Virus record (IMG/VR): IMGVR_UViG_3300008997_000047
Length of the DNA: 55,812 nucleotides
From: a virus
Direction: 5' to 3' (one strand)
In this document: positions 6,341 through 48,701 of the stretch, piece by piece
Position numbering within the stretch: position 1 is the stretch's first letter
How the letters are laid out: the number at the start of each line of letters is the position of its first letter
The notes under the pieces: model-generated
What the model saw: only the letters and a program-made list of their open reading frames with translations
Told to the model about the DNA's origin: nothing
The model's database searches: none
Program-made: the position numbers and the translations under genes

Positions 6341-6388
6341 TGCGCTCGTGTCCGGAGCCATGTGGCAGACTACGTGAAACGCGAAAGG

Positions 6389-6412: not shown

Positions 6413-6419
6413 TTTCTTT

Positions 6420-8375: not shown

Positions 8376-8383
8376 GAGAGGGC

Positions 8384-8917: not shown

Positions 8918-8919
8918 CT

Positions 8920-9447: not shown

Positions 9448-9449
9448 CT

Positions 9450-10595: not shown

Positions 10596-10640
10596 CCTTG
10601 AGAGCGCCCCTATATATAACTGTCCTATTCCACTGAACGC

Positions 10641-18072: not shown

Positions 18073-18074
18073 TT

Positions 18075-18503: not shown

Positions 18504-18548
18504 CGAGACAAGTGTACTTGGGTAGAACTTTTTCAGGGAGATACGCCA

Positions 18549-30539: not shown

Positions 30540-33500
30540 ATGACGACTTCCAAGGAGCTTCTCGAACTCTATGGGGACTTCGTCAAGGAGCCCAAGGAGG
30601 AAGCTGCGCCCGAAGCAGAAGCGCCGCCGCCCGAGCCGCTGGAGCCGGAGACCGCTCCCGCCCCTCCGATTCCTAAGCTGGAGATTGCTGGGCAGCCCCC
30701 AAGCCCCCCTGTAGCCGCGCCGGAGCCCGAGCCGGTTGTGATCCCGCCAGTAGAGGAGGCCCCCGCACCCGCAGAGCAGTCGAAAGCTTTGACTCCGCTT
30801 GACCCGGAGTTTTGGGCGCAGGAAGCGGCAAAGCGGGAGGTCACCACCGAAGAGGATGTTTCTACGTGGTGGAAGGACGTAACCGAGGGCCCCCGGCCCG
30901 ACGTAGAGGCGCAGCTTGAGCATGCCCCACCTCCGGGCGGATACCCCGAAGTGGACTACGGAGTAGACGAAGTTCTACTCCAAAAGAAGCCGCCTGCTGG
31001 ATTCGATGAGGAAGTCCCTCGTTCCGTGCGGCTGCATCTCCTCCAAACCGGGGCGGTCAAGGCCCCGGAAATCGAGGGCAAGCCTGCTGGCTACGAGGCA
31101 GAAGCTCTTCTGGATGATGACCAGTTCTGGTGGGATGTTTGGCGGAAGCAGCGTCTCCAAGCTCCGGGCGTCCGCGAGCGGATGGGAGCCACCGTCCAGA
31201 AGGCCCAAGAAGAACTCCGTAAGAAGGAGGGTGTTGACCGGGCTCTTGAGTTCGCTCGGCGTACTGTTCCCACTCGGCGCATTGCTGGCGTCCCGGGCCT
31301 TGCGGTTGGCTACCACGACATGCGCGACCGGGTGCAGATTCATATCGAGCGGGCGCTCATGGATGCCGAGCCTGTTCACCCCCGCTACATCAGCCAAGCA
31401 AAGAAGGGCGAGATTGCAGCCCGGGCCCGCCAACTGGCTACCGCAGAGATGGGCCGGTACATGGAATCGGGCCAAGACCGTATTCTTATTGACCGGTATG
31501 GCCGAGACGCAACTGAATGGTTGATGCGGCGGAACGCTCTTATCCGCCCGATTCTCGCCATTACTTCGGGTGTTGAAGCTCCTGGAGAGGGGGAACCACG
31601 TACAGGTATCGGGCGTCTCCGCTCCGCTTCTGCACTCAACATGTTCGGGCGAATGGATGCGTCCACGATCTTCGCAGCGATGCTCCTGACGGGAGAGGGC
31701 CCGTCAGCCCGGAAGACGATTGAGACCATCCGCTCGGGCGTGGACATCTTCGATGCCGCCAATCAAGTGGGCGAACTCTTCTTGGGCCTTGAGGAGGAGA
31801 TGGAGGAAGGTCTCCAGAGGGAAGCCAGGATCGCTCGGGACCAGGGAGTCCCAGAAGAGGAGATCCAGCAGAAGATTGAAGATGCCCGGTTCCGGTACAA
31901 CTATGCTCGGAAGTGGGTGGGCACTACGGGCTCCGTTGGGGCGATCCTTTTCGCCCCTGATCCGATGAGTCTCACAGCTACGGGTGCAGCCATCGGGCCT
32001 AAGATGCTGTCTGCCCAAGTGAAGATGCGTAAGCTCCAGCAAGGGGAGAAGGCTTTCCGGGGCGCAGTAAAGGAACTCCGTACAACCCCGGCCACTGACG
32101 TGCGCCTCCGGGCCATCAAGAAAAAGCTCCAGGATATTGATCCGGTCTATGGCCGGGCATTTGATGTAGCTATCGGAGAAAAGCTGGCGCTTACAGGCGA
32201 CATTCCTGGGGCAGCCCGGATGGCTCTGGACAAAGCAGCAACACTTCGGAGGGAAGCAGAAGAGCTTCTGGAGAAGGTGGCTGCGACCGCTGACGAGTTT
32301 GCCCAAGCAGAACTCAAGGTGCTCGCTGGATCCAAACAGGCTGAAGCCGCTACGCAAGAGTATGCAGCTACCATCTTCCAGCAGACGTTCGAAGAGCTTC
32401 GGATGGAGAGGCTGCTCGAAGAGGAGGGCATGGCAGCCGCTCGAATCGAAGAGATCCTCGACTCAGGCAAACTGCCCGCAGATGCAGACAAGGCTGCTGC
32501 GCGAGTCACGAAGCAACTGAAGAAAGATGTAAAAGACGCCAGGGCAGAAGTGGCGGCAGCCGAGGCTACACACAAGCCGTACTGGGAGTTGGAGCAGAAG
32601 GCAGCGAACTCCTATGAGGTTCATGTCCGGGTAGCCCTGAAAGGCACTCCATTCGATGGCTATGTGCCCCTGCACATCTTTGCGCGGAAGGCAGATCCCG
32701 CACCTGTACTCTACCAGAAAACAGCCGATGGGCGTAAGGTCCCGAACCGTGACCCCAGTGGCCGCTTCGGGCCTGCCGCTACAGTTATCGTCGATGACGT
32801 AAAGCCTTGGCGTACCAATCGAGTCAAGATCGTGATGCGGCGCATGGATACTGGAGAGGAAATCACGATCAAACAGAAAGTGGATCCCGACTTGATGGAG
32901 GGACTACGCAGGACTCGCAATGCAGTTCACAAGGCAACGAAGGAAGGGTTCCCCCACGCAGGGGCCTACGACGCAGCAACAAAAAGCCTCGGCAAAGCAG
33001 AGTTGGCGCTGAAAGTTGCCGAGGAGGGAGGGCTGCTCACACGGGGGATGGAGAGCCTCGCCAACATCAAGGGTGCCCGGAGAATCACGGGTAAGAAATA
33101 CGACGCGGCCAAGAGAGCCGCCAAGATTGGTGACAAGGAAGTTGTACGCCTCCGGAAGATTATTGCCGACGCTGGGCTCAAGTCTGTCCGCAAGAGCATC
33201 CAAGCAGACATGCTGGACAAGACCATGGTTCGGGCTGGAGATGCTCTGGAAGAGGTGGCCGATGGGATGGCTGCATTCCTCAAATCTGCTCGAAAAGAGT
33301 TCGGCGGCATCAAGATGCTGGGCCGAACCAGTCGGGATGTAGCTGCCCTGGGGGCTTCCATCAGCGAAGAGAAGGTGATGAAGCTCGCGGATAGGGCTAT
33401 CGCTGGGAGCCGAATTCGCTTTGACCGGGCTACCGACACGGCGACTGTGAACGTGGATAAGGTCCGGAGCGCAGTGCTCATGCGTTTGAACGAGCAGATG

Positions 33501-36500
33501 GGCAAGCCCGCTATCCGAGGGGCAACAGAAGTAGAGTGGAAAGCCTCGGAAGAACTCCTCGAAGAGTTTATGAAGACTCCCCAGGGGCGTCCGCTTCGAG
33601 AGGCTCTCAAGGCTACGCCCGAGCCCGAAGGAATGATGCTTGGGCCGACACTCCGTTATGATGCCAAGCAAACCGAAGCCCTCCAGCAATCAATGGAGGA
33701 TCTCTTCCGGTTCTCCGAGGCTCGCATCATCGGAGATACTGCCCGCCAATGGGGCCGAGCTATTCACCTGGGCTTTCAAGACTTGGACCTCGCGGGCAAG
33801 TCTGGCGCCCGGCACCGCAGAATCATGTCTCTCTTGGGCAAGAGTATGCGCCTCTTGCAGAACTCTGCCTCGCGAGTAGGGACCACAGGCGCAGACCTCG
33901 AAGCCGTTGTCAAGAGCTTCGATAATGTCCTCGACCAGTTCAAGCTGGAATGGCAAGCAGCTACCACCGGCAAGCCGCACATGGAAGACGCCATCGCTTG
34001 GGTCGATTCCCGGGCCGAGGTAGCACCTAAACATGGGATGGCTCTCTGGGACATGATGACCGGCCAGGGAACCAAGTGGGAAAAGGCCAGGAGGCAGATC
34101 CTCACTGACCACCGGGCTGACCCGCGCTTCCTCCGGAAGTGGCAAAAGCTCCAGGATGAGCTATTCCAGACGCCCATTGAGGATAAAGCCCGACGTGGGA
34201 TTCTGGAAGCAAAGCTCGAACGGCTCCACAATGAGTATTTGAAGAAGCTGGACATGGACACGGCTCCAGTCGCCCTCCGGGCTTTGGGCCTTATGTGGAC
34301 CCCCTCGGGCGCTCAAATCCCTTCCGCACAGGCGGCGCTTCTTATCCAGCACGCAGCCAAGCTCATCGAAACTTCCCCGGACTATCGCACCTTCGCCCAG
34401 AAGATGAGAGAGTTTACTGTAGCTACGGTAAAACACGTCGATATCAGCGAGGGAGTCGCTCATGGGAAGGGCATCGCGGCTGTCGGCCTCGCAGGCACTC
34501 TGGGCTATGCCAGCCGGAGGCTGTCTGAAGTCGCTGCGGGACCCCTATCGGTGAAGCAGGCTGCCGACATGAATCGGCTGCTGCGGGGTGAGTACAAGGA
34601 TATCGAAGACCTCAACGAGGCGCTCGAAGGCTTCAACCGCCTGGGCCTTCCCTTTACAGAAGAGAAGCACAAGCGGCTGGCCAGCCGTACACGCGCCCAA
34701 GTAGACCGGACCCGGGAACTCGTAGCGATGGCGGACGAGGGGGATGGTGTATTCGCATTCATTCCCCGGAACATCCTGGAAGAGTTTGAGGCCAACCACG
34801 ACAAGATCGTGAAGGAGCTTGCAGCGATCAACCGGTCAGGCGACCATGCAGGCTCTCTCGTCACAGATGGGCTCAAGAACTACTACGGCTTGTGGCGCAT
34901 GTCCCTGGTCTCTGGGCTTTTTACTCCGAACCCTCGGTACTGGACCAACAACATCTTCGGTGATGCCAGCCAGATGTTTGTGGAAGTAGGAGCGCTCCGT
35001 TCAGGGGCGCAGTCCTTTACGAACGCCATCGCCAACATCCATCCCAAGCTCTACGACGCACAGCAGCAGATGATCAAGTCTGTGCAAGAGCGGTTCGGTG
35101 ATGTTCCAGTCCTCCCGAGCGTGATCGAGAGCTTCTTCAATCCTTACCTGGGCCGCATTTTCAAGGGAGAGAAGGGCTTCTTCACATCTACGAAGGGGCG
35201 TGTCTATTCCTACGACACCGTTCGAAAATGGGCAGCCGAGGACGATGTTCTCGATACCTTCATCCATGAAGAGCTTCACGCTCTGTACAACCGCAAGTTC
35301 AAGAACGAGTGGTCTACGCTCTTGTTTGAGGATGTTCCTGGTCTTTGGGCCAAGCACGCTGCTGGTGTGCAGCAGCGTCAGCGGATGGCGTTGTACTGCC
35401 AGCTTCTCCGCTCGGGCGAATCACGCGCCCTGGCGAAAGAGCGCACCCTCCGGGCTCTGTACGACTGGAAGCATGGAATCGCAGAGTTGGAGATGCAGAC
35501 CATTGCGAAGCCAGTAGTGTTCTGGCGCTTCTGGCGGCTGGCGATGAAGCAGATGAAGGAGGCTGCGATTGAGCCCTTGGTGAAGTCAACGCCTGAGATG
35601 TTTGTCCGAGCAGCTACCGGACAAACACAACTTGCTCGGATTCGGCAGCAAGCGTTCTTGGCTACCCGTCTCCCCGACCACATCGCGGGTGGGGATGAGA
35701 GCGTCTTGACTAAGACCGTCAGAGAGATTGACTTCCTAAACCACTTCGCTCGGAAATACTTTGCCGAGTGGTGGAAAACACGCATTATCACAGGGCCGCA
35801 TCTCTTGGATCCCAACCGGGCTGCTTTCTTCCGTGAGATGTGGGGTCCCAACTACACGCACCAGATGAACGTGTGGCCCACGGCAACTATGCTCGACACG
35901 TTTATGATGGCTCGGATTATCCCTGCGGCGATTGGCGGCCTGTCTCTCCTGGGCACCACACCGGATGACCCGGGCTTTGCGGATCGTCGAGCGCGTATCG
36001 CAGAGGATTGGGAGACGCAGTTGGCTGAGCCTCTCCTCGGCACCGTCCTCCGGCCTTATGAGGAGATCCTACGATCTGCCCTTTCAATGTGGGATGTGGA
36101 TCTGGACATTGAATCCCGGGGCCGTGAGCGCACACTCTCCCCCCACGATGAGTGGGTTCTCAAGAAGTTTGGGATGGAAGGATGGATCTTCCCAGGGAAG
36201 GCGGACGACGGGCGATCAAAGATGAGCAAGTTCGGGTACTTGGTCTACAAGCAAATCCCTTGGATCGGTACACAGGTTCCTGAGTATATCCGTACATTTA
36301 TTACCGAGAATCCCGAGCTTGCAGGCGGCGACGTTACCTACATCGATCCTCGGACGGGCCAGCCCGTAACGACCACGTTGATTGAACGCGACTACATCCT
36401 GGGCATGTGGACAGCTTGGAAGAAGCTCACACGGTTCGGAGATACGAGATATTTCGATGCGCCGAAGAAGGCCGAGCGAGAAATCAAAGAGATTCGCCGT

Positions 36501-36569
36501 GAAATCCAAAAGGATTACCCGCCAGAGAAGCCATATAAGAGGCCCACGCGCATTCATATTCCCGAGTAG
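30540..36569 (+). CDS. Giant 2009-aa virion-associated protein (internal-core/ejection gp16-like position)
   Basis: Uninterrupted 6-kb ORF. P/A/E-rich N-terminus, long helical charged middle, W/F/Y-rich C-terminal third. No catalytic motif recognised. Confidence 0.55.
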   Translation: MTTSKELLELYGDFVKEPKEEAAPEAEAPPPEPLEPETAPAPPIPKLEIAGQPPSPPVAAPEPEPVVIPPVEEAPAPAEQSKALTPLDPEFWAQEAAKREVTTEEDVSTWWKDVTEGPRPDVEAQLEHAPPPGGYPEVDYGVDEVLLQKKPPAGFDEEVPRSVRLHLLQTGAVKAPEIEGKPAGYEAEALLDDDQFWWDVWRKQRLQAPGVRERMGATVQKAQEELRKKEGVDRALEFARRTVPTRRIAGVPGLAVGYHDMRDRVQIHIERALMDAEPVHPRYISQAKKGEIAARARQLATAEMGRYMESGQDRILIDRYGRDATEWLMRRNALIRPILAITSGVEAPGEGEPRTGIGRLRSASALNMFGRMDASTIFAAMLLTGEGPSARKTIETIRSGVDIFDAANQVGELFLGLEEEMEEGLQREARIARDQGVPEEEIQQKIEDARFRYNYARKWVGTTGSVGAILFAPDPMSLTATGAAIGPKMLSAQVKMRKLQQGEKAFRGAVKELRTTPATDVRLRAIKKKLQDIDPVYGRAFDVAIGEKLALTGDIPGAARMALDKAATLRREAEELLEKVAATADEFAQAELKVLAGSKQAEAATQEYAATIFQQTFEELRMERLLEEEGMAAARIEEILDSGKLPADADKAAARVTKQLKKDVKDARAEVAAAEATHKPYWELEQKAANSYEVHVRVALKGTPFDGYVPLHIFARKADPAPVLYQKTADGRKVPNRDPSGRFGPAATVIVDDVKPWRTNRVKIVMRRMDTGEEITIKQKVDPDLMEGLRRTRNAVHKATKEGFPHAGAYDAATKSLGKAELALKVAEEGGLLTRGMESLANIKGARRITGKKYDAAKRAAKIGDKEVVRLRKIIADAGLKSVRKSIQADMLDKTMVRAGDALEEVADGMAAFLKSARKEFGGIKMLGRTSRDVAALGASISEEKVMKLADRAIAGSRIRFDRATDTATVNVDKVRSAVLMRLNEQMGKPAIRGATEVEWKASEELLEEFMKTPQGRPLREALKATPEPEGMMLGPTLRYDAKQTEALQQSMEDLFRFSEARIIGDTARQWGRAIHLGFQDLDLAGKSGARHRRIMSLLGKSMRLLQNSASRVGTTGADLEAVVKSFDNVLDQFKLEWQAATTGKPHMEDAIAWVDSRAEVAPKHGMALWDMMTGQGTKWEKARRQILTDHRADPRFLRKWQKLQDELFQTPIEDKARRGILEAKLERLHNEYLKKLDMDTAPVALRALGLMWTPSGAQIPSAQAALLIQHAAKLIETSPDYRTFAQKMREFTVATVKHVDISEGVAHGKGIAAVGLAGTLGYASRRLSEVAAGPLSVKQAADMNRLLRGEYKDIEDLNEALEGFNRLGLPFTEEKHKRLASRTRAQVDRTRELVAMADEGDGVFAFIPRNILEEFEANHDKIVKELAAINRSGDHAGSLVTDGLKNYYGLWRMSLVSGLFTPNPRYWTNNIFGDASQMFVEVGALRSGAQSFTNAIANIHPKLYDAQQQMIKSVQERFGDVPVLPSVIESFFNPYLGRIFKGEKGFFTSTKGRVYSYDTVRKWAAEDDVLDTFIHEELHALYNRKFKNEWSTLLFEDVPGLWAKHAAGVQQRQRMALYCQLLRSGESRALAKERTLRALYDWKHGIAELEMQTIAKPVVFWRFWRLAMKQMKEAAIEPLVKSTPEMFVRAATGQTQLARIRQQAFLATRLPDHIAGGDESVLTKTVREIDFLNHFARKYFAEWWKTRIITGPHLLDPNRAAFFREMWGPNYTHQMNVWPTATMLDTFMMARIIPAAIGGLSLLGTTPDDPGFADRRARIAEDWETQLAEPLLGTVLRPYEEILRSALSMWDVDLDIESRGRERTLSPHDEWVLKKFGMEGWIFPGKADDGRSKMSKFGYLVYKQIPWIGTQVPEYIRTFITENPELAGGDVTYIDPRTGQPVTTTLIERDYILGMWTAWKKLTRFGDTRYFDAPKKAEREIKEIRREIQKDYPPEKPYKRPTRIHIPE

Positions 36570-37722: not shown

Positions 37723-38091
37723 GTGCCCGGTGACACGCCATACTCTCCAGAAGAGATTGAAGAGCTAAAAAGGCTATTCAAAGAGAACGCGCCTCCCGAT
37801 GGTGTGATTACCTATAAGGGCCGTAGGGTTCGGTTGAAGCCTCCCGAGGTAGTCACGGTCAAGGAGGTTTCGATCACTTCCAATCCGTACATAGTCAAAG
37901 AGACTCCTTCCCTAAAAAAGTTGCGGGCATTGGCCCCGGATTTGACAGCCCCTATGAAGAGTATGAGAGAAGATGCGGCCAGGAAGGCTCTTCGGAAGTC
38001 GTTTCCCCCTCCCGAAGATGGGCCTCTTGCTCCCATTGATCCCAAACTCCTCCTCCACGTGAAGGGGCTTGAAGAGGATGAGAAAAACTAA
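37723..38091 (+). CDS. Hypothetical protein
   Basis: 122-aa ORF. GTG start after GGGGAGAGCC. Confidence 0.5.
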   Translation: MPGDTPYSPEEIEELKRLFKENAPPDGVITYKGRRVRLKPPEVVTVKEVSITSNPYIVKETPSLKKLRALAPDLTAPMKSMREDAARKALRKSFPPPEDGPLAPIDPKLLLHVKGLEEDEKN

Positions 38092-39107
38092 TGGCACGCA
38101 CTACTCCTACAGTTGGTAACGCTACTCGGATTATTCCTGCTCCCGACCCAAGTGGCGGTGGCGGAGGCGGTGGCGGAGGCGGTGGCGGTGGAACAGGCCC
38201 CGAGGATTGGACCGAGGTTGACCTATCGGTGACAGCTGGCGTGCCGGACAACTTTCACCCTATGCACCGGCTTGGTCAACTATGGCGGTGGGAAGTAAGC
38301 AACCCAAGCGCCGGGGTAATGCGGATCAAAACAAAAACCAACGGGTCAGCGGGCGTTTGGCAGGGAAACCAACAAGAAGGTTTAGCTCTGATTGTGCCGG
38401 TCCAAATTGTTCCCAGGACGTTCCCCAACCCCGCAGGTGTGACAGGGAATCAGTGGCGCTCCGAGGATTGCCGCCTCTACATCGAGATGGATGTAGGCCC
38501 TAATGGGTTCCTGAATGACGGGACAGGCCACAGCCCGGCGGGGCCTTACGGTGTGGCCCTAACGGTCGGCCCGATCATCTACGCCTATGACACCGATCAT
38601 GGAGACGGGGCAGCCTTTGTTGCGGCGAACCCGACGCCTGCCGATTCGTATACGCATGTCATGGCGAAGAAGGAAAACAACCCGATTAATACTACGTGGA
38701 GCCACGCCTTTACGCTGGGGCAAATGTCACCCCCCGGCGTCTACCCTGGTGTGGGGGCGAATTACAACGACAGTCATATCGCGCTGCCCTTCGGGTCAGT
38801 CGGGACCTCAAATCGGCTATGCCTCCAGACTGGCGGGCAGTACAAAAAGTCCCAGGCGAACCAAGCAAATAACAGAGAGGTAGGGGCAACCGCTTCATCC
38901 GTCGATACCCGTGTAGATGATGGTGGTTTTACGGATTGGTGGTCCATGCAGAACCACAGCGACAATCGACACCGGATTGAAGACATGTATGTGTATGTAG
39001 GAATCGCCGCCGGGCAGTGGCAGTATGGCAACCACGTACAGGGTACATACATCGACATCACCGGCTTTAGATACCGCGTCCAGCCCGTCAAAAATAGGAG
39101 CCTCTAA
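38091..39107 (+). CDS. Fibre/receptor-binding-like protein with N-terminal poly-Gly linker
   Basis: 338 aa. TAATG overlap with the upstream gene. 13 consecutive Gly codons at 38154..38192, followed by a G/N/W/Y-rich beta-type sequence. Confidence 0.45.
   Translation: MARTTPTVGNATRIIPAPDPSGGGGGGGGGGGGGTGPEDWTEVDLSVTAGVPDNFHPMHRLGQLWRWEVSNPSAGVMRIKTKTNGSAGVWQGNQQEGLALIVPVQIVPRTFPNPAGVTGNQWRSEDCRLYIEMDVGPNGFLNDGTGHSPAGPYGVALTVGPIIYAYDTDHGDGAAFVAANPTPADSYTHVMAKKENNPINTTWSHAFTLGQMSPPGVYPGVGANYNDSHIALPFGSVGTSNRLCLQTGGQYKKSQANQANNREVGATASSVDTRVDDGGFTDWWSMQNHSDNRHRIEDMYVYVGIAAGQWQYGNHVQGTYIDITGFRYRVQPVKNRSL
38154..38192 (+). repeat. (GGN)13 microsatellite encoding poly-Gly
   Basis: ggc ggt ggc gga ggc ggt ggc gga ggc ggt ggc ggt gga, read directly. 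The 12-bp unit ggtggcggaggc occurs twice. Confidence 0.9.
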
Positions 39108-39396: not shown

Positions 39397-39804
39397 ATGG
39401 ATTACGAAATCAGAATCAAAGATCGGGGCCCAAGGGAGAAGTCTCTCAAGGCTCTCCAAGCCGCCTTAGGCTCTCTTCGGCTGCCCATTATGATCGATGA
39501 GGTTCGGGATGAGGGCGACGAGCTTGTCGTAGACTTCGACATTGATCTTGATGCGCTGGTCCGCTGGGCTCTCCTTGTGGCGTTCCGCAAGAACCCCGCT
39601 GGAATCGGGTTCGCAAACTTGATGCGGGTGGGCAAGTCCCAGCCGCGTAAGCGTGCCCGGGCTGGAGGTAAGTTCAAGGCCGATGACCCCAAGACCCCTG
39701 AAAATGAGGCTTGGGTTGGGGGGAAAGCCCCCAAAAAGAAGGCCCCAGCCAAGAAGAAAGCACCCAAAAAGAAGGCAGCGCCTAAGAAGAAAGCCAAGAA
39801 GTAG
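39397..39804 (+). CDS. Hypothetical protein with histone-H1-like K/A/P tail
   Basis: 135 aa. C-terminus GGKAPKKKAPAKKKAPKKKAAPKKKAKK. Confidence 0.6.
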   Translation: MDYEIRIKDRGPREKSLKALQAALGSLRLPIMIDEVRDEGDELVVDFDIDLDALVRWALLVAFRKNPAGIGFANLMRVGKSQPRKRARAGGKFKADDPKTPENEAWVGGKAPKKKAPAKKKAPKKKAAPKKKAKK

Positions 39805-41260: not shown

Positions 41261-41459
41261 GCTCAAGTCGCGCAAGTTTCTCTTCGCCCTACTGGGAGCC
41301 GTCCTCCCGCACCTTGCTGCCTATCTCTCATCCACCGTATCTGCGGAAGATGCTCTCCACGCTTCTGTGGCGATCATCATTTCCTACATCTTTGGGCAGG
41401 GCTATGTGGACGGGCAGGCGGCCCAAGGTCATCTGGATGCCCCGAAGCTGGGGAAATAG
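41253..41459 (+). CDS. 68-aa membrane protein (holin-like), last gene of the rightward block
   Basis: ATG 41253 after AAGGAGG (41241..41247). Two hydrophobic segments. Confidence 0.5.
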   Translation: MSKLKSRKFLFALLGAVLPHLAAYLSSTVSAEDALHASVAIIISYIFGQGYVDGQAAQGHLDAPKLGK

Positions 41460-41750
41460 CTAAAACAATAGCCCAAGGGCTGAAAAGAAAAGCGCGACAT
41501 AGGCAATGAGTTGCCCGTGTCGCGCTTCTTTGTATGCGGTGCGTAGCTCTGTCCGCTTCACCTTGTAGTCGAAGTGCCAGCCAGGAGAATAGTTGGGGAT
41601 ACGCTCGAAGAAGTCAGGACACTCGCGCTTGTTGAACACCTCCTGGTTGGTGAGGCGTGTCTGATACCACAGGCACACTCCCCCGAAGGTCTTCTCCTTG
41701 TGGTCAACCGGGTATGGCTGCCACAGCCCGCATCTACCACACCGGGCCAT
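41460..41750 (-). CDS. CxxC zinc-ribbon protein with hydrophobic C-terminus; last gene of the leftward replication block
   Basis: 96 aa. MARCGRCGLW...C...C. Its stop abuts the stop of 41253..41459 with zero spacer. Confidence 0.55.
   Translation of the reverse strand: MARCGRCGLWQPYPVDHKEKTFGGVCLWYQTRLTNQEVFNKRECPDFFERIPNYSPGWHFDYKVKRTELRTAYKEARHGQLIAYVALFFSALGLLF
41492..41533. terminator. Bidirectional intrinsic terminator between the convergent blocks
   Basis: GCGCGACA-ta-GGCAA-tgag-TTGCC-cg-TGTCGCGC hairpin. Followed by TTCTTTGT on plus and by TTTTCTTTTC on minus. Embedded in the 3' end of 41460..41750. Confidence 0.65.
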
Positions 41751-41884
41751 TACTCCTCCCCAAAGTTATCGGGATTCATGCCAGCGGCGAGGTCGGCCAT
41801 AGCTTCGAGACTCGCGGTCAGTCGTCCTATCGGTGTGTCCTGTACGAAGCCCCGCTCGACCCCTCGTTCTACAATGTCCGGCAC
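41750..41884 (-). CDS. Possible 44-aa ORF (VPDIVERGVERGFVQDTPIGRLTASLEAMADLAAGMNPDNFGEE)
   Basis: Translated by hand. The only frame here with a protein-like composition. TAATG overlap with 41460..41750, whose RBS GGGGAGGAG it contains. GTG start is weakly supported. Confidence 0.3.
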   Translation of the reverse strand: MPDIVERGVERGFVQDTPIGRLTASLEAMADLAAGMNPDNFGEE

Positions 41885-42102
41885 CCCGGAGTAGAGAGCC
41901 TCCTTCCATATCCATCACGCGCTCCTCAAGTCTGTAAAAAGAGTTTGAGAGAGCCGAGCGTCCTCCCCCGGATTGGGGAGGAGCGCCCACGCTCAATGCC
42001 AGTGGCGTATTCTTTGGAGACCTCCCGGCAGCCGGAAGTCTAAGGAGGGAGCAAGAGCCTACACGCCCACCACTCTCGGGGCTCTTACCCTCGAACATAC
42101 GC

Positions 42103-42435
42103 CTAATCCGCAGAATGAATACCGAGAGTAGTTATCTTTAGTTCCAGGTAGGCGACCCGAGCCTCCAAATCTCGGATACGCCGTGCTTGGGCTTCTGCAT
42201 CGCCCACCTCAAGCGGGATGGCGTTGACACGCCATGACCCCCGCTTGGGCTGGGAGAGCAAACCCTTGGTTTGAAGAGCCCCGAGCACAGATCGGATGCG
42301 ATTCCGGCTGTAGCAAGTGGTGTCTTTGTATATGAGGAGTGCGATGTTCGCGGTCGTCCCTTCGAAGTTGTCATAGAACCAGTCCATGACGGTATTCTGG
42401 AGAGTCCCTGGCCGCACCCCGGCCCAGACAGCCAT
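42103..42435 (-). CDS. Winged-helix-like DNA-binding protein
   Basis: ORF is open to 42525. ATG 42435 after GAAGGAAAGAAC. IALLIYKDTTCYSRNRIRSVLGALQTKGLLSQPKRGSWRV resembles HTH plus wing. C-terminal coiled coil. Confidence 0.5.
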   Translation of the reverse strand: MAVWAGVRPGTLQNTVMDWFYDNFEGTTANIALLIYKDTTCYSRNRIRSVLGALQTKGLLSQPKRGSWRVNAIPLEVGDAEAQARRIRDLEARVAYLELKITTLGIHSAD

Positions 42436-42466
42436 GTTCTTTCCTTCGGTGGAGTATCTCTCCGAC

Positions 42467-43816
42467 TCATACGATTTCCAAAGGGTGGCCTTCCTTGCGG
42501 GACAGGCTGATGTAGGTCCATGCACCCCGTGTACGTCCCCGGGGTTTCACTGTGCTCATAACGAGCACTTGGCAAGGAGCCTTCTCAAGAACAGCCATTG
42601 TCTTCGCCAAAGTCGCTGCATCCCACATGCGGTCATCGACTACGAGCAGAGAGTCGTCGCCGTCGGACAACGCCGCCGCCATCGCTGCAATCACCCGGGC
42701 TTCCGTCGAGCCCGAAAGGGCTGTGTGGAGTGTTCCGAAGTCGGTCGCAGTCATCCCTTTCCGGAGCCCGATGACCAGCTTGCCATCATCGACGTGGAAG
42801 TAGAGACTTTCTCCTTTGGGCAAGTACGAAGACGCCTTCTTCTGGAACTTGGCGACTCCTCCACTGGTGTTCAGGTCTTTCTGCATGATTTCCAGGATTT
42901 GCTCCTGCAAGTCTTTGAGAAGAGCGTTCTGCTTCTTCGCCATCGCCTCTCCACGTTTGGCTACAGTGCCGACTTTGAGGAGACGCCGATGGAGAAGAAC
43001 CTCACCAATAGTCGTCCTCACTGTCTCGGTCTCGGGGATGCGAGTCACAGCTTCCTGCCCGCCCAACTGCTCCACCAAGTGACGGAGAGTGTTTGGTGCG
43101 TGGGTTGCCGGGTCACGCTTGTTCTCCAAGTACAGGGCCCGAAGCAAATCCCGAGCGTGAGCACGCTCCAGACTATCCCACAAACCCGCAATCTCGTCAT
43201 CGGTGACCTCACGGATCGAGCCCAGGGATTCCAGGGCAATGATGCTTGCCTTCACTGCGGCGCTCTGCTCTCGTCTCGCAGACCCAAGCTTCGTGAGCAA
43301 AACCGAAAGATCAGACAGTTCGGAACTGTCCGACCAGTTTTGATCTAAGAGTCCGTGCAAATCTTCGTCGACTCGTGTCTGCTTCAGCCTTTCTTTGTTT
43401 TTGGGCTCGCATAGACGATGCCAGAAGAACTTAGCCTTGGTCTCTTCGCTCCCGGCGAGCACAGCGTGAAGCTCTGCGACAGACAGACCTACTCCGTTTG
43501 GGCCTGTCCGAACCGGACGCTTCCCTCCGTGCAGGACCCAGCTACATTCCTGCCCGTCGTCGAGAGAGGCGACGGCGTATGCTTTCTCCTCCCCGGGCGG
43601 AATCAAAGCGGAGAGCAAGTCGCCGCCCTTCACGGGCTTGTCTCGGTAGAGAAGCCCGAAGGCTGCCCCCGTCCGAGCAAGCTCTGCCGCCTCTGCGATG
43701 GCGCTCTTGCCCGCTTCGTTGTCTCCGATGAGAACAGTGTTCTTGCCCAGGGTGACTGTGTAGTCCTCCCCGTCTGGGCTCTTGATGTTGGTGGTCAGTT
43801 GTTCGATAAAGCTCAT
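42467..43816 (-). CDS. SMC/RecF/ABC-type ATPase with helical insert
   Basis: ORF is open to 43909. ATG 43816 after CCAAGGAGAAACAGA. Walker A GDNEAGKS near the N-terminus. LSGSTEAR signature and LLVVDD Walker B near the C-terminus. 449 aa. Confidence 0.7.
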   Translation of the reverse strand: MSFIEQLTTNIKSPDGEDYTVTLGKNTVLIGDNEAGKSAIAEAAELARTGAAFGLLYRDKPVKGGDLLSALIPPGEEKAYAVASLDDGQECSWVLHGGKRPVRTGPNGVGLSVAELHAVLAGSEETKAKFFWHRLCEPKNKERLKQTRVDEDLHGLLDQNWSDSSELSDLSVLLTKLGSARREQSAAVKASIIALESLGSIREVTDDEIAGLWDSLERAHARDLLRALYLENKRDPATHAPNTLRHLVEQLGGQEAVTRIPETETVRTTIGEVLLHRRLLKVGTVAKRGEAMAKKQNALLKDLQEQILEIMQKDLNTSGGVAKFQKKASSYLPKGESLYFHVDDGKLVIGLRKGMTATDFGTLHTALSGSTEARVIAAMAAALSDGDDSLLVVDDRMWDAATLAKTMAVLEKAPCQVLVMSTVKPRGRTRGAWTYISLSRKEGHPLEIV

Positions 43817-44064
43817 TCTGTTTCTCCTTGGGCATTGAGAGCCCTCTTGTAGAGGGCGGCGAGTGCCATGCCATTGACACGGCTGGGGTTGGATTTCCCA
43901 TTGCGCCATCTCTGGACGCTCTGGGCGCTGGGGTTGATGCCCCCCAAGTGCTGCCCCATCCCGACGGCGATGGCTTCATCGGAGAAACCCGCCTCCCGAA
44001 GTTGGGCCAGCAGTTGGGCTGCACTGATTTGAGCTTGGACTCTCTCGTCAAGAGTTACGGACAT
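43813..44064 (-). CDS. XRE/Cro-type HTH protein
   Basis: ATG 44064 after TGGAGGTGCCCA. LREAGFSDEAIAVGMG...SVQRWRNGKSNPS matches the HTH_3 pattern. ATGA overlap with the ATPase. Confidence 0.6.
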   Translation of the reverse strand: MSVTLDERVQAQISAAQLLAQLREAGFSDEAIAVGMGQHLGGINPSAQSVQRWRNGKSNPSRVNGMALAALYKRALNAQGETE

Positions 44065-44530
44065 TGGGCACCTCCAGGGGCAGTTTGAGTTGAGTAGATT
44101 CTTGGGGGGGTTCCCACAAGTCAAGAGTAAAGCCGCCCTGCCAATCCTCCGGGTCATGTTGGTGGATTCCAACGACCTTCTTGAGCGTGCCCTCGTCGAA
44201 GAGAATGACAGGACGGCCTACAGTGAGTGCCGCTTCAACAATCTGGGCTGTTGCACGGCCAACGGTTTCGCTGGGCACAACGATCATGTCGTAGTGCCGC
44301 TTCAAGGTAATGGAATCCTTGCGGGAAACAATCCCCTCAGCCCAGGCATCCCAATCACCTTTGAAGTGTAGCTTGTGGTCATCCCTCCCAGGAACCACTG
44401 ATACTTTTATTGGATGCCCTGCCTTCTCCCCTCGGGCTCGAAGGAGTCCTCGAAGCTCCTTTGATGCGGCGTCAATGCCGTCGCTGGATAGCCCAGCGGG
44501 GTGGCCGAAAAACACTCTGATTCTACTCAT
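44048..44530 (-). CDS. Flavodoxin-fold protein of the TIR / nucleoside 2-deoxyribosyltransferase-like assemblage (tentative)
   Basis: 160 aa. ATG directly follows the polymerase stop (TAAATG). RVFFGHP strand, then MIVVPSETVGRATAQIVEAALTVGRPVILF, reminiscent of TIR-like/NDT-like families. Confidence 0.35.
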   Translation of the reverse strand: MSRIRVFFGHPAGLSSDGIDAASKELRGLLRARGEKAGHPIKVSVVPGRDDHKLHFKGDWDAWAEGIVSRKDSITLKRHYDMIVVPSETVGRATAQIVEAALTVGRPVILFDEGTLKKVVGIHQHDPEDWQGGFTLDLWEPPQESTQLKLPLEVPNVRNS

Positions 44531-47074
44531 TTAGACCTCCGTCCACCGATACCCGGTGGCTCCTTCTGCGGTGTAGGTAAGCAACGCCCCGGTCTTTCTA
44601 CGCCGAGTCATCGCAGCCCCAAGAGCAGCCGCCGCAGCTTCGGCTTTCTCTTCGGGCACTTCCAAATAAAGAGCATCGTGTCCATGATTGATGAGCCATT
44701 CGAGGGGCATCACCACCCCCGGGCTTTCAACAGCTTCCGTGGCGAACCAATCTTGTATTCCGTAGAACAGTTCAATCATCGCCTCGTGGACGATATGGAC
44801 TCCTCCTGCTTGAATCCCGTGGTTCACCAGTTCGTTCAGCTTGTCCTCATTTCGGAAGTAGCGTCGTCGATCCCAGAACGAATCTCCAATGAAACCCTCC
44901 CTTCGGTAGCGGCTTTCAACCTTACGCCACCATCTGGGGATTTCTGGGTCGGCACGCTTTAGACCTTCGATGACTTGGCGAATGTCCTCTACTTGCATGT
45001 GAGAGAAAATGAGGTTGCCCTCGTCATCCTCGACGGACACGACTTGTTCGTGGATACGCTTCACGGATGCTGCGTACTGCCACGCATACCGGACGTTCTT
45101 GGTGATGTCTCGGGTTGCTTTGAACTGGCCTTTCCCCTTAGCTCTTCGGTCTTCGGGAGCGCCGTCCAAGCCCCACACCTCGGGCCCGTAGATGACTTCC
45201 ATCGTTTCATTGTGCGGGTCCAGGTTGTCGTTGATGATGCGGAGTGAGTTCATCGCCTGGGCTTCTTCTGCGATGAGGCGCATTTCCAACTGGTCCATGT
45301 CTGCCCCAACCAGTAGGTGCCCAGGGCGAGCGACGTACATGTCCCTGATAGAGTAGGGCTGGTTCTGCATGTTTGGATTGCTCGACGAGTAGCGCCCTGT
45401 TTTGGGTAGCCGGTTGTAGGATGGGTGTACACGGTTGACCGTTGTTCCCATGAGCGGACGGATGTATGTGCCCAAGAGTTTGCTCGCCTTGCGAAAAGCC
45501 CGAACGGAGTTGATGAAGTGGACCTTCTCCTCGTCCAGCCCGTAGTGGATGAGCATCGCCCGGAGCGTTGTGTCGTCTGTGGAAGGGTCGCCCGTCTTCT
45601 CCGAGTAGTGGTGAGGAGCAAGACCCCAATCTTTGAAGAGCAGCTTTGCCATTTGCTGGGTGCTTTGTGGGTTGAACTTCTCCCCACCGATGCTGTGGCA
45701 CTCCGCGAGGTGGTGCTTAGCCCTCTGTTCAAGCAGGAGGCTTTTCTCCTCAAGACGCTCTCGATCCAGGTGCATCCCGTTCGACTGCATGACTGTGCCC
45801 AACGCCTGGAGCATGTGCTCTCTGGGCAGAAGGTGTGTCTGCCGACGGTTCTTCACGTCTCGGGCAAGAGGGGTAGCGATTCGAGCAGTGACGCAGGCAT
45901 CCTTCCCGCAATAGACATGAAGCTCTCGGTTGGTCTTCGCCTCGGTTGCGGTGTGGTCAGCCTTCCAGGCTTCCGGGTTGTCGGTGTAGAAGGAGCCGAC
46001 AAAACCAAGACCGTGGGGGAGTTCGTTGTCTGCCAAGAGGTGCAGAAGCAGCGTATCTGCCGCGAGGTTGGGTGTTTGGCCGAGCCACTGTTCGCACACA
46101 AGACGGTCATACTGGCCCGCGTTGTGGCCTAAGATCGAAAGCTCGCTACATAAAATGTCGCGAACCATTTCTTTGATTTGCTTCTCCTGGGCTGGAGGCA
46201 TGAGAGCCTCGCCTTGGATGCCCAGGGTAGGGATGACGAGTGCCTCGTCCTCGTTGCTGATGGCAATGCACCGGACGTTGGCGGTCATCGGATCAATCGA
46301 ATCCGTCTCAACATCGTATGCGAGGGGAGCCCCCAGCGTCCGGAACCGCCGAAGCTGTTGGAAGACCTTGCCCGGATCGTTCGTGATTACGATCCGTGGT
46401 TCTATCCACTGGAGACTCCCGTTGAAGAACCTAAATGCTTTCCGAAGATCGTGCTGGAAAACTTCGCGATATGCGGGCATCTGAAGGACGAACGAGGGGT
46501 GAATAGTATACGCAACCCTAAGTGTGACCTTGGAATCCCAAGGGGCAGGCACCTCTTCACATCCTCCCCGAATGCCCATGATGGAGAAATCGCCACCACG
46601 GATAGCCTTTGTGGCAGTCTTCCCTAAACACACGATATTTTTTATACCAGTTTGCCTAAGCTCCTGGAGCAGCCTGCCACGGCACGCTGCTGCCGGGCGA
46701 AGGATTTGTTCTGCGGTGGGATTATCCCGCCGGAGTTTGCGGTTGGCCCGGGCGACCATGATGTTCGCCGCTTCCAAGTCGTTCTTGGGTGGGCGGCATT
46801 GAAGAGCGTTGGTGATGTGGCACAAGTCCCGACGAATGTTCAAGGCGTCCAGGGCTCGCTGGAGTTCCATTCCACCCGGGCCAACGAAGGGCCTCCCTTC
46901 CATGACCTCGTGAGTTCCGGGTGCCTCACCTATGAGAATCACCTTGTCGTGCGGATGCTTCTCCGGGCCGACCGGATCTCCGGTGTCGGCCGTGCGGAGT
47001 GGGCACCGCGCACAGCGAGGGGATGCCCCCCCTCCCGAAGGAGAGGGGGCCGGGTTTGTGACACACCCCTGCAT
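44531..47074 (-). CDS. Family A DNA polymerase with 3'-5' exonuclease and N-terminal family-4 UDG-like domain
   Basis: UDG-like CARCPL and LIGEAPGTHE..GRPFVGPGG. Exo motifs YDVETD, GHNAGQYD, YCGKDA. Pol motif A VGADMDQLEMRLIA. Motif B K..VRYAWQYAAS. Motif C GHDALYLEV. Confidence 0.9.
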   Translation of the reverse strand: MQGCVTNPAPSPSGGGASPRCARCPLRTADTGDPVGPEKHPHDKVILIGEAPGTHEVMEGRPFVGPGGMELQRALDALNIRRDLCHITNALQCRPPKNDLEAANIMVARANRKLRRDNPTAEQILRPAAACRGRLLQELRQTGIKNIVCLGKTATKAIRGGDFSIMGIRGGCEEVPAPWDSKVTLRVAYTIHPSFVLQMPAYREVFQHDLRKAFRFFNGSLQWIEPRIVITNDPGKVFQQLRRFRTLGAPLAYDVETDSIDPMTANVRCIAISNEDEALVIPTLGIQGEALMPPAQEKQIKEMVRDILCSELSILGHNAGQYDRLVCEQWLGQTPNLAADTLLLHLLADNELPHGLGFVGSFYTDNPEAWKADHTATEAKTNRELHVYCGKDACVTARIATPLARDVKNRRQTHLLPREHMLQALGTVMQSNGMHLDRERLEEKSLLLEQRAKHHLAECHSIGGEKFNPQSTQQMAKLLFKDWGLAPHHYSEKTGDPSTDDTTLRAMLIHYGLDEEKVHFINSVRAFRKASKLLGTYIRPLMGTTVNRVHPSYNRLPKTGRYSSSNPNMQNQPYSIRDMYVARPGHLLVGADMDQLEMRLIAEEAQAMNSLRIINDNLDPHNETMEVIYGPEVWGLDGAPEDRRAKGKGQFKATRDITKNVRYAWQYAASVKRIHEQVVSVEDDEGNLIFSHMQVEDIRQVIEGLKRADPEIPRWWRKVESRYRREGFIGDSFWDRRRYFRNEDKLNELVNHGIQAGGVHIVHEAMIELFYGIQDWFATEAVESPGVVMPLEWLINHGHDALYLEVPEEKAEAAAAALGAAMTRRRKTGALLTYTAEGATGYRWTEV

Positions 47075-47077
47075 CAC

Positions 47078-47632
47078 TTACCCTTCCAGCAGGAAGTCGA
47101 AGTTCTCTTCCGAGGATGCTGCGGGCGCAGCAACCGCTTTCCCGTTGCTCCCGTTGGTGGGCGCAGCAGCTTCCACCTGGAAGTCCGAAGACACAGGCTT
47201 GCTGGTGGCGCTCACAATCTGCTCGAACTGTGCCTTCTGGTAAAAGCGATAGCGGGGGTAGCTCCCCTCCACGCGACGACCGTTGTCTTCCAACTCGGGC
47301 GGGGTGTAGTTGAAGAACACCGGACGGTTGACCACCTTGTCCATGGGCAACTTCATGGAACCGCTCATCTTGTCCTCGGGGATTCCAGCGGAGACGAGGA
47401 AGCCCATGAGGAAAGCGAGGCCGTTCCCGGACAGGTTGAAGCTCTCCCGGTGACGGATGCCGTCGGTGATCATGTAGACATACAGACGGCCAGCGTTGTC
47501 TTCGTACTGGCGGGTTTCAAGGACAGTACCGGTGTGGAACCCCTCGGTGAGGTAGCCCAGGGATGAGCCGCCTGCGGGAGTCGTGCCGGTGAAGTCCACG
47601 GTGATGGTGGGGTTGATGATTTCAGAGGACAT
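47078..47632 (-). CDS. ssDNA-binding protein (putative, T7 gp2.5-like logic)
   Basis: 184 aa. Lies directly upstream of the polymerase. Flexible A/S/P tail ending in acidic-aromatic EENFDFLLEG. RBS AAGGAGCACTAAATC. Confidence 0.45.
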   Translation of the reverse strand: MSSEIINPTITVDFTGTTPAGGSSLGYLTEGFHTGTVLETRQYEDNAGRLYVYMITDGIRHRESFNLSGNGLAFLMGFLVSAGIPEDKMSGSMKLPMDKVVNRPVFFNYTPPELEDNGRRVEGSYPRYRFYQKAQFEQIVSATSKPVSSDFQVEAAAPTNGSNGKAVAAPAASSEENFDFLLEG

Positions 47633-47765
47633 GATTTAGTGCTCCTTGTAGATACACACGTTGTTGGTTTGCTGTTCTCCCAAAGGGAGGGGGGGATGGA
47701 GAGCCAGCCAGGACTTGAGAGGAAAAAGCATAAAAAACCCAAGTCCCAGCCGACCCCCCAAAACT

Positions 47766-48701
47766 CTAAGCGAATAGCTCCTCGTCGTCGGTTGGCAGGG
47801 CAAAGGTTTGCGCGATGCCGACGTTCTGGTGATGGATGAGGATGGCCCGGTGAAGTGCGTCCTGCATCGCCCACCTGACGTGGGGAACAGGGTGCTCTCC
47901 TCGGAGGGCTCCGAATGCTTTCTGGATGATGGTCGGCCAGTTCTCAATCCCGTCTTCCAGGATCTTGTCGGACAGTTTTTCAACCACCTTGGGCATCCAC
48001 TCCATCCCCGGGGGATATGGGATGGGGTAGCCTGCATGGCGCAGTCCTTCGGCAATGTTCATGGGAGCCATGCCCGGGAAGACTCCAAGCCTGTCGCCAC
48101 ACACGTAGTCGGGCTGGGGCTCGAAGCACAGTTGATACTTCCATGGGGCAGCGGTCGCCTCGAACATGGCTCGGCCAATCACGTCTACCATCCCACTGAA
48201 CTTCTCGGGCAGTTGCCCAGGAAGAGCGGGGCCACCACGGATGAACTTGCCACTGCTTGTGCGGGGCGGTTGCTCGTGGCAGTTGAAGATGACGACGGTG
48301 CCACGCTCGGTTGCTTCCCGGGCTGCATCCCTGATTTCAAGCACGTCCCTGGTCAGGGCGCTCCACATATTGGAGCGTCCTTTGGTCGCCTCGTACTCGT
48401 TGATGGTGGACTCGACCACAAGGGAGAAGTCATCCATCACAATCGAGGGGGGCCGAGATGTCCCAGAGCCCAACAAGCTTTTGATCTGCGCCGTTGCCTC
48501 GGGCACCAGCTTGGCTGGACGAATGTCCAGGTTCTTGATGCCCAAGAACTGGCGGGCGGACATGAGCCCAGAGGGGCTCCCGATGAATGCTCCCGTGGAA
48601 CCAGCCGCAGCCGACGCTACAGTTTTACCAGCCTTGCTGGGCCCATAGAGGCAGATGAAGACTCCCGGCATAGCCGGAGCCTTTCCGTTTGATTTGCTCA
48701 C
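47766..48701 (-). CDS. AAA_24/Sak4-like RecA-fold ATPase
   Basis: 311 aa. Walker A LYGPSKAGKT, Walker B-like SIVMDDFS. Sits in the recombination neighbourhood. GTG start after TAGGAG. Confidence 0.65.
   Translation of the reverse strand: MSKSNGKAPAMPGVFICLYGPSKAGKTVASAAAGSTGAFIGSPSGLMSARQFLGIKNLDIRPAKLVPEATAQIKSLLGSGTSRPPSIVMDDFSLVVESTINEYEATKGRSNMWSALTRDVLEIRDAAREATERGTVVIFNCHEQPPRTSSGKFIRGGPALPGQLPEKFSGMVDVIGRAMFEATAAPWKYQLCFEPQPDYVCGDRLGVFPGMAPMNIAEGLRHAGYPIPYPPGMEWMPKVVEKLSDKILEDGIENWPTIIQKAFGALRGEHPVPHVRWAMQDALHRAILIHHQNVGIAQTFALPTDDEELFA

Follow-up and report, generated by a model that had tools for sequence, protein, structure and literature searches.

A Conserved Three-Gene Set with a Miniature Rad50-Type ATPase in the Replication Operon of an Uncultured Ocean Phage

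Gene Organization of the Locus

The IMG/VR virus record IMGVR_UViG_3300008997_000047 is a complete metagenomic contig of 55,812 bp (JGI 3300009008 Ga0115649_1002611), and this whole stretch of DNA, as analysed here, is referred to as the window. Four closely packed genes, designated A, B, C, and D, lie on its minus strand directly downstream of a DNA polymerase gene. Gene A (44048..44530; 160 amino acids (aa)) begins with an ATG that abuts the TAA stop codon of the polymerase, and gene B (43813..44064; 83 aa) begins with the ATG at 44064 and overlaps A by 17 nucleotides (nt). Gene C (42467..43816; 449 aa) begins with the ATG at 43816 within the ATGA that it shares with the stop codon of B, giving a 4-nt overlap, and gene D (42103..42435; 110 aa) begins with the ATG at 42435, 31 nt past the stop codon of C. 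An earlier note on this DNA, which was made from the sequence without database searches, had described these four genes and their junctions (TAAATG, 17 nt, ATGA, and a gap of 31 nt), and this description is exact; the gene calls by JGI and ENA on four copies of the contig give the identical four genes. Based on the homologue clusters of A and C and the recurrent position of B beside C, the open reading frames (ORFs) of A, B, and C are judged to be real genes, not chance ORFs.

The upstream anchor of this module is the polymerase gene (44531..47077, minus strand), which encodes a DNA polymerase A (PolA) with an N-terminal family-4-type uracil-DNA glycosylase (UDG) domain and a 3′-5′ exonuclease domain (Pfam scores of 1.8e-41 for DNA_pol_A, 3.5e-21 for UDG, and 3.8e-6 for DNA_pol_A_exo1). 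On the minus strand, the operon runs from a DUF5906 primase-helicase through an SNF2 helicase, a PD-(D/E)XK nuclease, an AAA_24 ATPase, and a 184-aa protein to UDG-PolA, and A, B, and C are located at the 3′ end of this replication/recombination operon of an uncultured ocean phage of ~55 kb. No promoter-like site was found within 41300-47800, the few terminator-like matches in the same interval do not exceed the shuffle expectation, and no Rfam family, tRNA, or notable repeat was found in the cassette.

Structure and Motifs of the ATPase C

The earlier note had recognized in C the split head of the RecF/RecN/SMC/ABC class, and this assignment is borne out by invariant motifs, an AlphaFold2 model (pLDDT 92.6), and Foldseek searches with that model. 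C is confidently predicted to be an ATP-binding cassette (ABC) head of the structural maintenance of chromosomes (SMC)/Rad50 class with a short coiled coil, that is, a hookless mini-Rad50. Its best PDB matches range from 1e-13 to 1e-10 in E-value and include the SMC head 5xei (2e-13) as well as Rad50 and Smc5/6 (~1e-11); cohesin and condensin heads are also among the top matches, and AriA, the retron-IA ATPase, and RecF rank lower. As defined for the SMC/Rad50/RecF class of ABC ATPases, the head of C is split, with Walker A in the N-terminal part and the signature motif, Walker B, and D-loop in the C-terminal part. Walker A is GDNEAGKS (residues 31-38; 43703..43726, minus strand), in which G31, N33, E34, G36, K37, and S38 are invariant among 59 sequences of the C family (58 loci and the window). 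The signature motif, or C-loop, is LSGSTEAR (residues 367-374; 42695..42718, minus strand), where A366, L367, S368, G369, S370, E372, and R374 are invariant, and Walker B together with the D-loop is LLVVDDRMWD (residues 390-399; 42620..42649, minus strand), where D394, D395, and R396 are invariant. Expressed as family patterns, K12, GxNExGKS, ALSGSxExR, DDR, and T422 are invariant, and D399 and Q416 are at least 90% conserved.

The earlier note had also placed a helical insert of ~330 aa between the N- and C-terminal motifs. Its helical character stands for residues ~170-329 (42830..43309, minus strand), which form an antiparallel coiled coil according to DSSP of the model, but not for the whole stretch, since residues ~50-165 form a β-rich N-lobe in the AlphaFold model. 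The coiled coil consists of ascending helices 170-197 and 206-234, an apex at 235-262, and descending helices 263-317 and 319-329, and gives an arm of ~10 nm. A helical insert lies at its base (residues 139-167; 43316..43402, minus strand), and in short C proteins of ~385 aa both this insert and the C-terminal tail (residues 439-449) are deleted. Asp395 occupies the position of the catalytic Glu of ABC ATPases; the placement is based on the profile of the sister clade described below, which aligns with the window clade and in which this position pairs with the DE of an ABC transporter. The DD of Walker B is presumably shared with RecF.

C does not reach the gathering thresholds of the curated families Pfam SMC_N, AAA_23, and AAA_15 or NCBIfam RecF, SMC, and SbcC. 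A Pfam scan of the 59 members gave only sub-threshold matches to AAA_23, SMC_N, and similar families; the best match of the window protein is AAA_23 (17.9 bits against a cut-off of 27), and SMC_N is found below threshold in 35 members. Among the weak NCBIfam matches, RecF has the best E-value (1.8e-6) and is matched by 16 of the 59 members, and PtuA is matched by 23. Identity of C with RecF or PtuA was rejected because the matches span only the P-loop region in the members inspected, in which RecF scores at most 21 bits against a cut-off of 172. A recurrent weak match to Pribosyltran was likewise rejected as probably a chance likeness of the VVDD of Walker B to the phosphoribosyl pyrophosphate-binding motif, the matched region itself not having been inspected. 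C has no match to a recombination-nuclease ATPase in PHROG, its only match there being phrog_4747 (function unknown; residues 19-47, E = 7.8e-5). Profile searches of the C, sister-clade C, and A families against PDB sequences gave only P-loop or non-significant matches.

Coiled-Coil Apex and the Soil Sister Clade

A deeply diverged sister clade of C comes from soil or high-GC samples, and its proteins are 560-690 aa long; its longest contigs are again 55-60 kb, and one examined contig has an integrase. The two clades align over their full length in hhalign (probability 100%, E = 2.4e-58), with ~24% identity in the profile alignment. A CxxC motif is present at the coiled-coil apex in 28 of 29 aligned sister-clade sequences, mostly as a zinc-hook-like C-x-x-C-G-G, and it aligns with L-G-G at the apex of C (residues 250-252; 43061..43069, minus strand), of which G252 is at least 90% conserved. 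Zinc-hook cysteines are absent from the apex of the window protein and of all 59 aligned marine-clade sequences, which read h-G-G/T/S-K. From these alignments, C is best described as a miniature Rad50-type protein, the ancestral hook cysteines of which would have been lost in the window's clade. The Walker B position is E or D in the sister clade, and the A-B-C trio occurs in the same order in the soil clade (locus L067) and in locus L066.

L066 is the sole chromosomal copy of C. It belongs to an island of ~13 kb (5262-18573 of JGI 3300037424 Ga0395806_0000163) in a high-GC bacterial chromosome, between genes for an OPT transporter and a type I restriction-modification (R-M) HsdM, and the island contains several XRE genes, RadC, the A-B-C trio, and an integrase; the hook of its C is degenerate (C-F-C). 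It probably represents a prophage in decay from the soil sister clade. Its interpretation as an autonomous mobile A-B-C or defence island was rejected because the genes are ordered as at the integrase-proximal end of temperate relatives, L067 for example.

Co-Conservation and Gene Order

Homologues of C form 114 clusters, many of them on contigs of 50-60 kb, and a further 56 clusters, and the trio-carrying family is large and consists of uncultured phages of ~55-60 kb. The order PolA-(inserts)-A-B-C was found in ~50 C-anchored IMG/VR loci, down to ~30% C identity. In a PolA-anchored sample of 30 IMG/VR loci with at least 3.5 kb downstream, both A and C are present in all 30 loci and B in 28; the A-anchored and PolA-anchored scans cover mostly the same contigs. 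B adjoins C in 53 of the 59 sequences searched. Both junctions within the trio nearly always overlap: across 48 loci, the A-to-B gap is -32 to +13 nt and the B-to-C gap is mostly -4 nt, and insertions (64-1326 nt) occur only between PolA and A, never within A-B-C. Furthermore, A, B, and C co-diverge with PolA, the AAA_24 ATPase, and the PD-(D/E)XK nuclease, with no sign of exchange. By these comparisons, the trio belongs to the core of the replication operon and has diverged vertically along with it in every family member sampled, and it is not a mobile defence cassette.

A search of 185,579 prokaryotic species, each represented by one genome, gave no true C homologue, and the distribution of the C family is phage-only. 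The proposal in the earlier note that the genes form a carried accessory conflict cassette is contradicted by this absence and by the core position of A, B, and C in the replication operon, and the last alternative of that note, a novel replication accessory, is the one favoured by the evidence. Neither C nor A nor the region as a whole has a match among 50,697 GenBank phage records by tblastn, DNA, or protein search, and no known phage polymerase in these records exceeds 26% identity to PolA; on such comparisons, the lineage is an uncultured one without a GenBank phage relative. The main text of a preprint on UDG-fused phage polymerases (bioRxiv 10.1101/2025.03.26.645540) mentions neither SMC nor an ATPase nor synteny.

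The exceptions to the common order are informative. In L057/L040, which lack B, A has moved to an upstream position with a 4-nt overlap with the AAA_24 gene, and a 4-nt overlap also joins C to PolA. In L051, L054/L113, and L058/L116, A abuts C without B, and the C ORFs are ~385 aa long; short C proteins have no adjacent B in the three loci examined. As these short C proteins are the ones without residues 139-167 and the C-terminal tail, those segments are a candidate docking site for B. A follows PolA directly or one small gene on in L115, L065, L144, L063, and the P0214 contig; L115 and L065 lack both B and C, and the contigs of L144, L063, and P0214 end too early to tell. A is usually found in UDG-PolA replication operons, even without B and C.

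Protein A

The A family comprises 609 clusters at 50% identity in an exhaustive profile search. A k-mer-limited search had returned only 12 relatives, and the reading of A as rare and therefore accessory was overturned by exhaustive hidden Markov model (HMM) searches. The AlphaFold2 model of A (pLDDT 93.9) is a flavodoxin-like three-layer sandwich with a C-terminal β-hairpin, and A is by this model a new Pfam-less family with a predicted flavodoxin-like Rossmannoid fold. Pfam scans of the window protein and of 121 family members gave no match and no recurrent family, and the window protein has no PADLOC match. A broad alignment of the family has no conserved stretch; the conserved positions are H10, G48-R-D-D51, W60, W63 (100% invariant), G91-x-A-T94, D126, D129/N, and G133. 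Of these, H10, R49/D51, and G91-T94 sit just behind predicted strands, and the conserved residues of the C-terminal hairpin are D126, D129, W130, and G133. The motifs RVFFGHP and MIVVPSETVGRATAQIVEAALTVGRPVILF, which the earlier note had quoted for A, are present, as are those quoted for C (GDNEAGKS, LSGSTEAR, and LLVVDD at residues 390-395).

In Foldseek searches against the PDB, the best E-value for A is 3.6e-3, with matches to lumazine synthase, an Argonaute MID domain, and PTS IIB, and no TIR, nucleoside 2-deoxyribosyltransferase (NDT), or LOG protein is among the top 50. Against viral models (BFVD), three true homologues come first and are followed by weak neighbours (E 2e-3 to 1e-1, TM 0.33-0.47), namely YpsA-type SLOG, DUF4406, DUF2493, DprA-like proteins, and NDT; TIR is absent from the top 50 there too. 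These neighbours constitute the Rossmannoid class TIR/DrHyd/SLOG as defined in PMC9503650. A resembles this class (DprA, YpsA, DUF4406, and DUF2493) in its three-layer α/β fold and in the Gly-rich loop with a Thr at the helix N-terminus after the central strand (G91-x-A-T94), and differs from it in its lack of a Pfam match and of an invariant catalytic Glu and in the extra C-terminal β-hairpin. The earlier note had associated A with TIR-like and NDT-like flavodoxin folds; the flavodoxin fold is retained by the Rossmannoid model and the weak SLOG/DUF4406/NDT neighbours, but the TIR part is not, as neither a TIR match nor an invariant Glu was found. An NDT-like reading is plausible at the level of the fold class only. 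Because no Glu is invariant among the 121 sequences, an N-glycosidase mechanism of the NDT/LOG type would lack its usual catalytic residue. Measured against what we take to be the NDT/LOG motif, the position of A where the catalytic Glu is expected is variable and the G91-x-A-T94 loop is conserved.

In L063 (6001-7581), a fusion protein of 526 aa, encoded one small gene past UDG-PolA, carries an A domain C-terminal to an N6/N4 DNA methyltransferase. This fusion may hint at a link of A to DNA or nucleotide chemistry. Several A homologues (P0169, P0214, and P0225) share an N-terminal extension of ~60 aa (for example, ...WIPKSQI...DWIAE-KGISDE) with no Pfam match, and P0264 has a C-terminal extension of ~165 aa instead.

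Proteins B and D

B appears to be an XRE-like helix-turn-helix (HTH) protein, as the earlier note had read it. Its family motif is G-h-S-D-E-x-I-A-V...P-S-x-Q-S-V-x-R-W-R-x-G-K-x-x-P, of which S-V-x-R-W-R-x-G-K-x-x-P resembles an XRE recognition helix; its Pfam match to HTH_3 is sub-threshold (E = 0.079, 13.4 bits against a cut-off of 23). D has a winged-helix-like N-terminal part followed by a C-terminal heptad helix, with weak Pfam matches to Penicillinase_R (E = 0.029, 15.2 bits against 22.6) and Mrr_N (E = 0.063), and a single-sequence search found no relative of D among PDB sequences. Neither B nor D has a match in PADLOC. D is found only in loci whose C is ~87-88% identical to that of the window, and other clades have unrelated small genes at its position. 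D is a lineage-specific add-on outside the conserved trio. The four genes had been taken as one unit in the earlier note, with a neighbourhood search proposed as a check; the search shows A, B, and C to be co-conserved in related phages but not D, and the unit is reduced accordingly to three genes.

Relation to Rad50-Mre11 and RecF Systems

In phages, Rad50/SMC ATPases are known mainly from nuclease complexes of the gp46/gp47 type. C resembles the ATPase of Rad50/SbcC-Mre11/SbcD systems (T4 gp46/gp47 and T5 D13/D12) in that its ABC head is likewise split by an antiparallel coiled coil, in that Rad50 structures are among its best Foldseek matches, and in that its gene lies among replication and recombination genes; the sister clade, moreover, retains the CxxCG zinc-hook-like apex motif. 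In contrast, C has only 449 aa with ~10 nm arms, its clade has lost the cysteines of the hook, Asp stands in for the catalytic Glu and Thr for the His switch, and there is no PHROG or Pfam membership. A nuclease partner is also missing. The earlier note had stated that no Mre11/SbcD-type nuclease lies near the ATPase, and this is corroborated for the whole window genome: no Mre11/SbcD metallophosphatase was detected among the Pfam-scanned window ORFs, no window ORF of at least 120 aa contains GNH[DE], or GDhx[DH] together with hxDxH, and no Mre11/SbcD was found next to C in related loci.

RecF and RecN, which act at gaps or ends, are like C in being small SMC-class ABC ATPases, and 5z67 and 2o5v (RecF) are among the Foldseek matches of C. 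On the other hand, the RecF sequence matches inspected cover only the P-loop region of C and lie far under the cut-off, the coiled coil of C is much longer, and no RecO or RecR partner is present.

Proposed Role of the Trio and Alternative Explanations

Our leading reading, which we hold tentatively and at somewhat less than even confidence, is that A, B, and C form a conserved trio with a role in replication or recombination, in which C serves as a mini-Rad50 DNA clamp and B and A are accessory. We infer that C clamps DNA, that B contacts C, and that A binds a ligand. In the proposed mechanism, two C heads may sandwich ATP and close on DNA, each bearing a coiled-coil arm, the apex of which would descend from a zinc hook. 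B, an XRE-type HTH protein of ~60-80 aa in the family, is probably produced stoichiometrically with C through translational coupling and is probably the small subunit of C, binding the coiled-coil neck, DNA, or both. A would be a small Rossmannoid protein that binds nucleotides or phosphate and belongs to the TIR/DrHyd/SLOG fold class; its most constant genomic home is the UDG-PolA replication operon. In this reading, the trio most likely acts on the replicating DNA of the phage itself, where it would recognize or keep hold of ends, gaps, or hairpins and link these with the PD-(D/E)XK nuclease, the AAA_24 (Sak4-type) ATPase, and the polymerase of the operon. It would then be a nuclease-less, hookless analogue of Rad50-Mre11 or of RecF-type mediators.

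The Rad50/SMC-type ATPase class is known, and a nuclease-less, hookless mini-Rad50 with two partners as core phage genes has no characterized counterpart; the same applies to the 609-cluster A family. In a widespread lineage of uncultured phages, a miniature Rad50 relative, nuclease-less and, in this clade, hookless, has a fixed place in the replication operon. Working out the trio would reveal the capabilities of a minimal Rad50-like clamp that lacks Mre11, would give a function to the large Pfam-less family of UDG-polymerase operons, and would test a shared ancestry of Lamassu-type defence and phage replication accessories.

Several points weigh against a replication role of the trio. The catalytic set of C is atypical, with Asp395 in place of the catalytic Glu and Thr422 in place of the SMC/Rad50 His switch, and, in the 59 sequences, the stretch from Walker A to the signature motif has no invariant Gln; given this set, C may be a slow switch, like the sensors in defence systems. 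Identity among homologues is ~15 points lower for A, B, and C than for PolA and AAA_24, enzymes of the same operon. A is separable from B-C and need not form one complex with them, and no characterized homologue of A, B, or C was found. The sister-clade C proteins have weak LmuB and mad3 HMM matches beyond the P-loop, over the coiled coil or the whole length (E 1e-7 to 1e-10). In addition, viral SLOG-class domains have been proposed to counter host immune signals derived from ADP-ribose (PMC9503650). The gene order and the gene sizes, moreover, mirror those of a defence system, Lamassu/ABC-3C.

Bacterial immune sensors of the Rad50/SMC type include those of Lamassu, Wadjet, and PARIS. A rather unlikely but serious alternative is that the phage carries A-B-C as a conflict system of the Lamassu/ABC-3C type for superinfection exclusion or counter-defence, in which C would sense competitor DNA ends or hairpins or an attack by the host, B would be the middle component, and A a nucleotide-processing effector or a sponge for immune signals. 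Lamassu/ABC-3C systems consist of the effector LmuA, the middle component LmuC, and the SMC-like ATPase LmuB (layout as defined in PMC10586767). The trio has this layout, shared with DdmABC, in its order of a small effector-like protein (A), a small middle protein (B), and a Rad50-like ATPase with a short coiled coil (C); the likeness to these systems is one of layout only. The zinc-hook-like CxxCG, the short coiled coils, and the size of the sister-clade proteins are also like those of LmuB, to which they match over the coiled coil with E 1e-7 to 1e-9, and this is suggestive of kinship, not of membership. The faster evolution of the trio than of the operon enzymes, the atypical catalytic residues of C, the richness of the SLOG/DrHyd class in conflict-system domains, and the retention of the trio in a prophage remnant beside a type I R-M gene would all be accommodated by such a system.

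On the other side, the sequence of C from the window does not place it in Lamassu: it matches LmuB (PDLC03859) only at residues 12-46, in the P-loop (E = 0.0083), and across the LmuB, AriA, GajA, and PtuA models only residues ~9-77 are covered, mainly the P-loop, with E of 8e-5 or worse. A is a single domain of ~140 aa with no recognized effector or docking domain, in contrast to LmuA with its enzymatic N-terminal and C-terminal docking parts, and lacks an invariant Glu. The E-to-Q change of Walker B is general in LmuB, whereas D395 is invariant in C and the sister clade has E or D. Unlike variable defence cargo, the trio is universal in the family and fixed in the phage replication operon (30 of 30 loci), and the C family is absent from the prokaryotic genomes searched; A occurs without B and C, and C without adjacent A or B. 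The content of the prophage remnant is explained by its location next to the integrase. The membership of PARIS and Thoeris, which the earlier note had named beside Lamassu as systems of matching layout, likewise fails, and of that comparison the three-gene layout of Lamassu/ABC-3C is what stands. For PARIS, AriA HMMs match C only at residues 19-43 and 27-77 (E 1.7e-3 or worse), no Toprim protein (AriB) is adjacent, and AriA structures rank below SMC/Rad50 in the Foldseek search of C. Thoeris requires a TIR protein (ThsB) and ThsA (SIR2-SLOG or Macro), and A, B, and D are without PADLOC or Pfam matches.

A related reading, which we consider unlikely, combines the two roles: the trio would be a phage-core relative of Lamassu/ABC-3C, in which C, as a Rad50-derived sensor of DNA ends or hairpins, acts through B to gate A as a nucleotide-processing domain of the TIR/DrHyd/SLOG class. 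The phage would use it for control of its own replication or for the exclusion of rivals. If true, this reading would establish a connection between an abundant immune system of bacteria and an ancestral replication module of phages and would add a new effector family of more than 600 clusters.

Distinct from any joint action, whether as a replication trio or as a conflict system, A, B, and C could be functionally unrelated neighbours, their tight spacing reflecting operon compaction; A would then be an accessory of the UDG-polymerase or a nucleotide-sanitizing factor, B an early/late transcriptional regulator, and C an independent DNA-repair ATPase. The occurrence of A with UDG-PolA where B and C are absent, the loss of B in several clades, the border position of the trio, next to lysis and late genes that run in the opposite orientation, and the frequent gene overlaps throughout the genome would fit such independence. 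It is made quite improbable by the insertions, which fall between PolA and A and never inside A-B-C, by the B-to-C ATGA overlap kept across clades whose C proteins are ~24% identical, and by the short C proteins, which lack a defined segment and also an adjacent B in the loci examined. Finally, a segregation or compaction device of C and B (mini-SMC/MukB-like, or a partition ATPase with a DNA-binding adaptor) that organizes phage genomes or maintains an extrachromosomal prophage would agree with the SMC, condensin, and cohesin heads among the top structural matches and with the use of small winged-helix or HTH partners by SMC complexes, but is very improbable in view of the ~10 nm coiled coils with the ancestry of a Rad50-type hook, not an SMC hinge, the temperate relatives that carry an integrase, not a plasmid-prophage module, and the absence of a centromere-like repeat array near the genes.

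Other Features of the Window

In the polymerase with its N-terminal UDG domain, at least six cysteines (C22, C25, C94, C132, C173, and C270) are invariant in 12 diverse homologues, and a subset of these cysteines could bind the Fe-S cluster typical of family-4 UDGs. The homologous polymerase of L144 is split by an intein with a LAGLIDADG domain. Past D, the stretch of 352 nt at 41751-42102, up to the next minus-strand gene (96 aa, 41460-41750), contains no convincing gene; it has no Rfam match, and its folding energy is like that of shuffled sequences (z = -0.64), with no significant RNA structure.

The early region (23-3708, minus strand) contains a second ATPase-centred gene set, which consists of a MoxR-type AAA_5 ATPase (2506-3708, minus strand), a 364-aa protein with no Pfam match (1415-2509, minus strand), and a DUF2201 metallopeptidase/VWA protein (23-1345, minus strand). 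On the plus strand, a 338-aa protein (38091-39107) starts with 13 consecutive glycines, for which a short tandem repeat of the GGN/GTGGCG type codes (38152-38198). A 135-aa protein (39397-39804, plus strand) ends in a Lys/Ala/Pro-rich stretch, KKAPAKKKAPKKKAAPKKKAKK, made up of 15/33-nt tandem repeats (39723-39794), and this tail may be a candidate for DNA binding. The structural region contains one ORF of 2,009 aa (30540-36569, plus strand), presumably a large tail or injection protein. Nine of the ten large plus-strand ORFs tested have no Pfam match, and the sole match is an SU10 adaptor domain at 21672-23210.

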